From Escherichia coli (GTDB taxonomy: Bacteria > Pseudomonadota > Gammaproteobacteria > Enterobacterales > Enterobacteriaceae), in NCBI RefSeq assembly GCF_003334785.1, contig NZ_QOWV01000004.1: a stretch of 64,000 nucleotides of DNA, one strand, 5' to 3'. This document shows, in pieces, positions 24,867 through 26,836 of the stretch. How positions within the stretch are numbered: the first letter of the stretch is position 1; each line of letters opens with the position of its first letter. The translations under genes and the position numbers were made by a program. Below the pieces are notes generated by a model. That model made no database searches and had not been told where the DNA came from. It worked only from the letters and a program-made list of their open reading frames with translations.

Positions 24867-25721
24867 ATGGTACTGATGATCGTCAGCGGACGTTCAGGTT
24901 CAGGTAAATCTGTCGCCCTGCGTGCGCTGGAAGATATGGGTTTTTACTGCGTGGATAACCTTCCCGTAGTGTTGTTACCCGATCTGGCTCGAACCCTGGC
25001 CGATCGCGAGATTTCTGCCGCCGTCAGCATTGATGTTCGTAATATGCCGGAGTCACCAGAAATATTCGAACAGGCGATGAGTAACCTGCCTGACGCTTTC
25101 TCACCGCAACTCCTGTTCCTGGATGCCGACCGTAATACCTTAATTCGTCGTTACAGTGACACGCGCCGACTGCATCCGCTTTCCAGCAAAAACCTGTCGC
25201 TGGAAAGTGCTATCGACAAAGAAAGCGATTTGCTGGAGCCTCTGCGTTCGCGAGCGGATCTGATTGTCGATACCTCAGAAATGTCCGTTCACGAGCTGGC
25301 TGAAATGCTGCGTACCCGTCTGCTGGGTAAACGTGAACGCGAACTGACCATGGTCTTTGAGTCTTTCGGCTTCAAACACGGTATCCCTATCGATGCAGAT
25401 TACGTCTTTGACGTGCGCTTCTTGCCGAACCCGCACTGGGATCCGAAACTGCGTCCAATGACAGGTCTTGATAAACCTGTCGCCGCGTTCCTCGACCGCC
25501 ACACAGAAGTACACAATTTTATCTACCAGACGCGAAGCTATCTTGAGCTATGGTTACCTATGCTGGAAACCAACAACCGTAGCTACTTGACGGTCGCCAT
25601 TGGTTGTACCGGCGGGAAGCACCGTTCGGTGTATATTGCAGAGCAACTGGCAGACTACTTCCGCTCGCGCGGTAAAAACGTCCAGTCACGCCATCGTACG
25701 CTGGAAAAACGTAAACCATGA
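24867..25721 (+). CDS. rapZ: RNase adaptor protein RapZ (YhbJ)
   Basis: 284 aa; [23 protein letters not shown]... P-loop. Confidence 0.96.
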
Positions 25722-25990
25722 CCGTCAAGCAAACTGTTGAAATCACAAACAAGCTGGGCATGCATGCCCGGCCTGCAATGAAGCTGTTTGAATTAATGCA
25801 GGGTTTTGACGCTGAAGTGCTCTTACGTAATGACGAAGGCACCGAGGCTGAAGCCAACAGCGTTATTGCGCTGCTGATGTTGGATTCTGCCAAAGGACGG
25901 CAGATTGAAGTTGAAGCGACCGGTCCACAGGAAGAGGAAGCACTGGCCGCCGTTATCGCCCTCTTTAATTCTGGTTTTGATGAAGATTAA
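25718..25990 (+). CDS. ptsO: Phosphocarrier protein NPr
   Basis: 90 aa; [26 protein letters not shown]...; start overlaps rapZ stop (ATGA). Confidence 0.95.
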
Positions 25991-26136
25991 TCTTCATCAC
26001 TTTGACATACAACTCCCTTCAAACTCCCCCCGACAATAAGAAAATCACGTACTGAAATCGTTCTCAATCAACGTCATTTGTACATTTTGTGCGCTTTTCA
26101 CTTTCAGAAGAACCTTAAGAAAACCTTAAGAGGCAT

Positions 26137-26153
26137 TGTTTAGGTTTTGTTTA
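26137..26153 (+). promoter_or_regulatory. Candidate PhoP box (direct repeat TGTTTA-N5-TGTTTA) upstream of yrbL
   Basis: TGTTTAGGTTTTGTTTA about 50 nt upstream of the yrbL start; matches the recalled PhoP direct-repeat consensus. Confidence 0.55.
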
Positions 26154-26203
26154 AGTTAATCGACCATACTGGAGATCGTCAGAAAATATTTCCAGGAGAT
26201 GGC

Positions 26204-26836
26204 ATGATTCGCTTATCTGAACAAAGTCCCCTGGGCACCGGAAGACATCGGAAATGTTATGCGCATCCGGAAGATGCCCAACGCTGTATCAAGATTGTCT
26301 ACCATCGTGGCGATGGTGGCGATAAAGAGATCCGCCGTGAGTTAAAGTACTACGCGCATCTTGGTCGCCGGTTAAAAGACTGGAGTGGAATACCGCGCTA
26401 TCACGGTACCGTTGAGACGGATTGCGGAACCGGTTATGTCTACGATGTGATTGCAGATTTTGACGGCAAGCCTTCCATTACGCTGACCGAATTTGCTGAA
26501 CAATGCCGTTACGAAGAAGACATTGCACAACTGCGCCAGCTACTGAAACAGCTGAAGCGTTATTTGCAGGATAACCGTATCGTGACGATGTCGCTGAAGC
26601 CGCAGAATATCCTCTGTCACCGCATCAGTGAGTCAGAGGTTATCCCGGTCGTCTGCGACAACATTGGTGAAAGCACATTGATTCCACTGGCGACCTGGTC
26701 GAAGTGGTGTTGTCTGCGTAAGCAAGAGCGGTTATGGAAACGATTTATCGCCCAACCGGCGCTGGCTATTGCCCTGCAGAAAGATCTGCAACCTCGTGAG
26801 AGCAAAACGCTGGCCCTCACTTCGCGCGAAGCTTAA
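26204..26836 (+). CDS. yrbL: Uncharacterized protein YrbL
   Basis: 210 aa from ATG ([34 protein letters not shown]...); track ORF has a 19-codon extension. Confidence 0.85.

Follow-up and report, generated by a model that had tools for sequence, protein, structure and literature searches.

Reports that PhoP activates yrbL and that PmrA/BasR represses it date back to 2003-2005, and both of the operators are already known. Zwir et al. in 2005 reportedly described yrbL as a PhoP-activated and PmrA-repressed gene that takes part in a 'bi-fan' motif with pmrD. The Salmonella yrbL promoter carries a single PhoP box, which has been footprinted and lies in direct orientation 11 nt before a CATACT -10 hexamer, and its PhoP-dependent start site has been mapped with S1 nuclease, giving a leader of 32 nt (PMC3335776). 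In Shigella, deletion of phoPQ brings yrbL expression down to 0.02x, i.e., a 50-fold dependence, PhoP-P shifts a fragment of the promoter, and the PhoP site listed for yrbL of Shigella flexneri is the 19-mer tTGTTTAggtttTGTTTAa, the same as that of E. coli (PMC5775216).

On the PmrA side, verified boxes consist of CTTAAG and xTTAAT half-sites with 5 bp between them, bound by a head-to-tail PmrA dimer (PMC3973317). PmrA binding to the E. coli yrbL promoter and its repression are stated in secondary citations (PMC3335776, PMC2681069, and PMC4196223), and PMC2681069 puts the PhoP and PmrA sites of the yrbL promoter ~24 bp apart in both E. coli and Salmonella. PmrA is named as the repressor of both yrbL and pmrD in PMC4196223, which also describes yrbL as the first PhoP target to be transcribed, yet the lowest expressed, and a table of regulators gives BasR and PhoP for yrbL (PMC4145685). 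Like yrbL, the Salmonella pmrD promoter combines a PhoP class II site at -35 with an upstream PmrA operator in a negative loop, the two boxes being ~38 bp apart according to PMC2681069, as against ~23-24 bp in yrbL. For E. coli B adapted to iron, basR, eptA, arnB, and pmrR have been reported up and yrbL down (PMC13405929). As yrbL has also been reported to be a direct Fur target, iron-linked repression seen in a transcriptome is not attributable to BasR alone.

The window analysed here, i.e., the whole 64-kb stretch of DNA, carries hpf, ptsN, rapZ, and npr on the plus strand, followed by a 213-nt intergenic region and then yrbL, with mtgA, elbB, and arcB on the minus strand beyond yrbL, as read from the open reading frames of the window. 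The yrbL coding sequence (26204..26836, plus strand; ATG at 26204, stop at 26836) encodes a product of 210 aa that belongs to PF10707, 'PhoP regulatory network protein YrbL'. The npr-yrbL intergenic region was found in every one of the complete E. coli genomes searched (5426/5426), yrbL is annotated in 5426/5426 E. coli genomes, and the 76 bases at 26100-26175 are completely identical to K-12 MG1655. A YrbL fragment with 99% identity to the E. coli protein was also met on a 420-bp contig of the Tannerella forsythia ATCC 43037 assembly, and the most likely source of that contig is contaminating E. coli DNA.

The region upstream of yrbL had been singled out for two sets of direct repeats, which lie 51-93 nt upstream of the ATG. 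These are a tandem of AACCTTAAG at 26111-26119 and 26122-26130, with a period of 11 bp, and TGTTTA (26137-26142), GGTTT (26143-26147), and TGTTTA (26148-26153), and both sets stand exactly at the coordinates that had been given for them. The same original prediction took 26137-26153 for a PhoP direct repeat and held that the other repeat is left unexplained by the PhoP site. The first reading agrees with the literature, as 26137-26153 is the published yrbL PhoP box, and the second claim is upheld, with the tandem of AACCTTAAG best read as a PmrA/BasR box on the opposite strand; the observation is thus confirmed and its interpretation supported. All in all, the region is very probably the known dual-input yrbL promoter, at which PhoP activates through the TGTTTA repeat and PmrA/BasR represses through the tandem 9-mer. 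What the present analysis shows is the sequence identity of the sites, how they are oriented and spaced, and how far they are conserved; the binding and regulation by PhoP and PmrA are taken from the papers cited. It is the promoter described for Salmonella and E. coli by Zwir et al. (2005 and 2012), with which it shares the PhoP box, the 11 nt to CATACT, and a PmrA box ~23 bp upstream.

Neither arrangement is expected often in a sequence of this size. The two copies of AACCTTAAG are the only ones in the 64-kb window, compared to 0.36 expected from shuffles, and under a first-order Markov model the exact patterns CTTAAG-N5-CTTAAG and KGTTTA-N5-KGTTTA, each of which occurs once, have expectations of 0.0019 and 0.026 per 64 kb, respectively. 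For the full 20-mer CTTAAGGTTNNCTTAAGGTT the same model gives 8e-7 in 64 kb. The four hexamers begin at 26114, 26125, 26137, and 26148, i.e., at intervals of 11, 12, and 11 bp, which places all four on nearly the same face of the helix, and 6 bp separate the proximal PmrA hexamer from the distal PhoP hexamer. A small ORF that runs over the repeats (TTG at 26078, 21 codons) was considered and set aside, being unconserved, with stops and variable spacer sequence in the relatives.

The PhoP box TGTTTA-GGTTT-TGTTTA (26137..26153, plus strand) matches (T/G)GTTTA-N5-(T/G)GTTTA at 12/12 positions, in direct orientation toward yrbL, and is the sole exact match in the window. It takes the place of a -35 element, as in the class II or 'architecture I' promoters, and TGTTTA-N5-TGTTTA is the yrbL PhoP box that has already been published. 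From its end at 26153 there are 11 nt to the -10 hexamer CATACT (26165..26170, plus strand), which agrees with the 11-12 nt of single-box class II PhoP promoters and is the distance shared by 19 of the 22 tabulated loci. All six positions of this hexamer are invariant in our alignment (A1), and the same hexamer has been assigned in Salmonella (PMC3335776). If the start mapped with S1 in Salmonella is carried over by homology, transcription would begin at 26173 on the plus strand and give a leader of ~32 nt; this predicted start lies only 2 nt past the -10, which is unusually short, and its position should therefore be read with an uncertainty of a few nt. A scan of 25900-26300 for sigma-70 promoters returned no match on either strand, which fits an activator-dependent promoter and lends no support to a divergent one. 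An intrinsic terminator scan of 25900-26300 on both strands found no match, and the sole match of an Rfam scan of 25700-26400 was a chance snoRNA (E = 0.29).

Several other features were seen around the -10 and in the leader. A Dam site (GATC, 26174-26177) adjoins the predicted transcription start, and a Dcm site (CCAGG, 26192-26196) lies over the Shine-Dalgarno region; yrbL is among the five genes most significantly up-regulated upon dcm deletion (PMC11741368). The leader segment GTCAGAAAATATTTCCAGGAG at 26178-26203 is largely conserved across genera, more so than a Shine-Dalgarno sequence requires, and it includes the near-palindrome GAAAATATTTC. In two E. coli strains the -10 hexamer (equivalent to 26165-26170) is interrupted, by IS1 after CCA in 2009C-3133 and by an IS66-family element after CATAC in Ecol_AZ161, and both of these insertions cut yrbL off from the promoter controlled by PhoP and PmrA.

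With the PhoP box accounted for, we turn to the tandem 9-mer. Its reverse complement is CTTAAGGTT, and the minus strand reads CTTAAGGTTTTCTTAAGGTT, i.e., a box of the form CTTAAGGTT-TT-CTTAAGGTT (26111..26130, minus strand) whose first hexamer runs 26130->26125 and whose second runs 26119->26114 with a 5-nt spacer between them. Assignment of this box to PmrA/BasR draws on the match to the consensus, on the K-12 targets, on the orthologues, and on the literature. All 15 of the 15 positions specified by the PmrA consensus CTTAAG-N5-NTTAAT/G are matched, the direct repeat of (C/T)TTAA(G/T) hexamers with a 5-nt spacer at 26114-26130 is unique in the window, and both halves conform to the extended half-site CTTAAGGTT, the proximal copy being invariant at 8/9 positions across genera. 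Measured between centres, the box lies 23 bp upstream of the PhoP box here, and 22 bp upstream in S. enterica. Motif identity and the ~24 bp spacing quoted at second hand are thus what points to a PmrA footprint at 26111-26130, and judged on its sequence, the second repeat that had been left unexplained is the known PmrA/BasR operator.

The minus strand of the tandem can also be read as GGTTTT-CTTAA-GGTTCT, which has the 11-bp register of a PhoP box and agrees with (T/G)GTTTA-N5-(T/G)GTTTA at 9/12 positions, and since a second, upstream box is present in some PhoP promoters (PMC3335776), the tandem could be taken for a reversed PhoP box of such a two-box architecture. We consider this very unlikely: the final conserved A is absent from both half-sites, footprinting of Salmonella yrbL found a single PhoP box (PMC3335776), and the bases that do not vary among orthologues are those of the TTAAG/TTAAT cores rather than of a GTTTA core, whereas the PmrA consensus fits perfectly.

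Comparison with the K-12 promoters that PmrA activates supports the PmrA/BasR assignment and shows where yrbL differs. Read from the K-12 sequence itself, these have CTTAAGGTTGGCTTAAT at eptA (pmrC), CTTAAGGTTAAGTTAAT at arnB (pmrH/pbgP), and CTTAAGGTTCACTTAAT at pmrR, all of which open with CTTAAGGTT and face their gene, with 10-13 nt between the box and the -10 downstream. The operator type, CTTAAGGTT-NN-(C/G)TTAAT with hexamers 5 nt apart, is shared with yrbL. In contrast, the boxes of eptA, arnB, and pmrR overlap the -35 and activate, whereas the yrbL box is inverted and upstream of the PhoP box, and represses. With its inverted orientation, 34 nt to the -10, and the PhoP box in between, the yrbL box has a non-activating geometry, in agreement with the repression that has been published, and is thereby excluded from the class that PmrA activates. 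As a side observation, the K-12 eptA promoter (L001 4665->4638, minus strand) has an extra AACCTTAAG directly upstream of its canonical box, in an inverted arrangement AACCTTAAG-AA-CTTAAGGTTGGCTTAAT in which the 9-mer is present in both orientations.

Because CTTAAG is its own reverse complement, the orientation of the E. coli box rests on the 3-nt GTT flanks and on orthologues in which the box is asymmetric. Such orthologues were found in E. albertii, four Citrobacter species, Salmonella enterica and arizonae, and Pluralibacter, where the distal copy is AATATTAAG or AACATTAAG. Their minus strand has CTTAAT as the distal half and so yields the canonical asymmetric box CTTAAGGTTTTCTTAAT, and this settles the orientation of the E. 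coli box. Put the other way, the distal half-site is CTTAAGgtt in E. coli as opposed to CTTAATgtt/att in Salmonella, Citrobacter, and E. albertii, and it is the E. coli form that makes the 9-mer tandem perfect. Outside E. coli, the perfect duplication is confined to its closest relatives within Escherichia, and neither 9-mer varies across a diverse set of E. coli that takes in O157:H7, CFT073-like strains, and the cryptic clades.

Conservation was expressed as the majority-residue fraction over 12 Escherichia, Citrobacter, and Salmonella sequences. This fraction is 0.90 for the distal and 0.97 for the proximal 9-mer (0.90-1.0 within the 9-mers), 0.87-0.90 for the PhoP box, and 1.00 for the -10 hexamer, compared to 0.53-0.61 for the spacers between the boxes. 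Both repeats are phylogenetic footprints, and conservation is confined to discrete blocks. A two-hexamer box is found at the same place in Escherichia, Citrobacter, Salmonella, Siccibacter, Pluralibacter, and Superficieibacter, with variable spacers around it, and the order PmrA box, 5-7 nt, PhoP box, 11 nt, CATACT holds in Escherichia, Citrobacter, Salmonella, Siccibacter, and Superficieibacter. These data bear on the idea that the tandem 9-mer is a non-functional product of slippage that resembles a PmrA box by chance. The restriction of perfect 9-mer identity to E. coli and its closest relatives would agree with such an origin, but an equivalent box is conserved across six genera between variable spacers, chance would yield 0.002 hexamer pairs and 8e-7 copies of the 20-mer in 64 kb, and repression by PmrA has been published, which together make a slippage origin extremely improbable.

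The gap between the PmrA and PhoP boxes is 5-7 nt wherever both could be placed, except in Erwinia (12) and Cedecea (24). In an Erwinia sp. (L019 1101-1117) and in Cedecea colo (L020 1076-1092), a PmrA-type box, CTTAAGGTTTT[A/C]TTAAG, is on the plus strand, followed by a PhoP-like repeat after 12 nt and 24 nt, respectively, and boxes that are turned round and set further away in this manner make a strict requirement for one geometry less likely. A diverged copy of yrbL with 60% identity was found outside the npr-mtgA context, on a contig labelled Enterobacter hormaechei (L018 848-1210), where it adjoins a tRNA gene to which ARAGORN gives the anticodon tta. Its PmrA box is degenerate, but the PhoP box, a -10 of the form CATAAT, and the third conserved block described below are all retained.

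Taken together with the published regulation, this layout suggests how the two inputs may be combined. Phospho-PhoP, formed at low Mg2+ or in the presence of antimicrobial peptides, binds TGTTTA-N5-TGTTTA at the -35 position and drives yrbL transcription. BasR is turned on by BasS upon Fe3+, Al3+, or mild acid, and also through PhoP-induced PmrD where that connector works, and phospho-BasR/PmrA would then occupy CTTAAGGTT-TT-CTTAAGGTT as a head-to-tail dimer. Relative to the predicted start, the PmrA hexamers are at about -59..-54 and -48..-43, and with an inverted box whose centre is near -51 rather than over the -35, BasR should be unable to activate yrbL. BasR-P bound at -59..-43 would make no productive contact with RNA polymerase. 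It represses the PhoP-dependent promoter instead, probably by crowding of the adjacent PhoP dimer and/or by blocking of upstream DNA used by RNA polymerase. We infer such a steric mechanism because no more than 6 bp lie between the proximal PmrA and the distal PhoP hexamer. When the PhoP -> PmrD -> PmrA route is added, we likewise infer an incoherent feed-forward loop, whose dynamics would have yrbL expressed early but at a low level and off at high iron. A reader working from the sequence alone was able to recover the two operators of what is a textbook incoherent feed-forward promoter. What also emerges is a rigid module of the Enterobacteriaceae, consisting of a conserved block, 16 nt, the PmrA box, 5-7 nt, the PhoP box, 11 nt, and the -10.

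The first element of this module is a third conserved block, TTGTACATTTTGTGCGCTTT (26078..26097, plus strand), also written TTGTACATTTnGTGCGCTTT. It is the best-conserved element of the npr-yrbL intergenic region among Escherichia, Citrobacter, and Salmonella, with 18/20 columns invariant in alignment A1 between variable flanks, and it lies 16-17 nt upstream of the PmrA box in 19/22 tabulated loci, including the non-syntenic yrbL copy. The block is part of the same promoter module, and we flag it here as a conserved element that goes unmentioned in the literature searched, in which no bacterial paper quoting its sequence was found, the sole hit being an unrelated paper on human genetics.

One way to account for the minus-strand orientation of the PmrA box is that it activates a divergent, PmrA-dependent transcript toward npr, with 26078-26097 as the start of the RNA and the repression of yrbL as a side effect. 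The box does have the required orientation, the block does lie at a fixed distance downstream on that strand, and pmrR shows that PmrA boxes are able to drive very small genes. However, no -10-like TAnnnT is found 10-13 nt past the box on the minus strand, the 16-nt spacer is unconserved, neither strand has a promoter-like site, there is no conserved ORF and no Rfam family, and the non-syntenic copy on L018 keeps the block although its PmrA box is degenerate. A divergent transcript is accordingly a highly improbable explanation.

We regard it as possible, if rather doubtful, that the promoter has three operators and that TTGTACATTTnGTGCGCTTT is the site of a third regulator acting together with PmrA and PhoP. 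Known regulators were compared with the block. The marbox bound by MarA/SoxS/Rob (AYNGCACNNWNNRYYAAAY) has no match at 26078-26097 within 2 mismatches, nor has the RstA box (TACATNTNGTTACA) within 3 mismatches, and the counts of both in the window are those of chance. An informal, by-eye comparison of the block with consensus sequences for CRP, FNR, ArcA, OmpR, PhoB, IHF, and Fis found none that fits. For the Fur box (GATAATGATAATCATTATC), for which 12 or more of 19 is the typical threshold, the best match in 25990-26210 is only 11/19, a level reached by about 0.6% of all positions in the window and by none in the third block.

Two ChIP-seq studies list yrbL as a direct Fur-repressed target with an additional dependence on O2 (PMC4676285, PMC7157518), and the published coordinate of the CFT073 Fur ChIP-seq peak, 3,781,815, corresponds to about 26075 in the window, 3-4 nt from the third block. 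A third regulator, if real, could underlie this reported Fur- and O2-dependent control of yrbL. Should TTGTACATTTNGTGC recur upstream of other genes in enterobacterial genomes, it would define a regulon. Separately, the best Fur-like match that we saw, 13/19, is in the -10 region of the diverged yrbL copy on L018.
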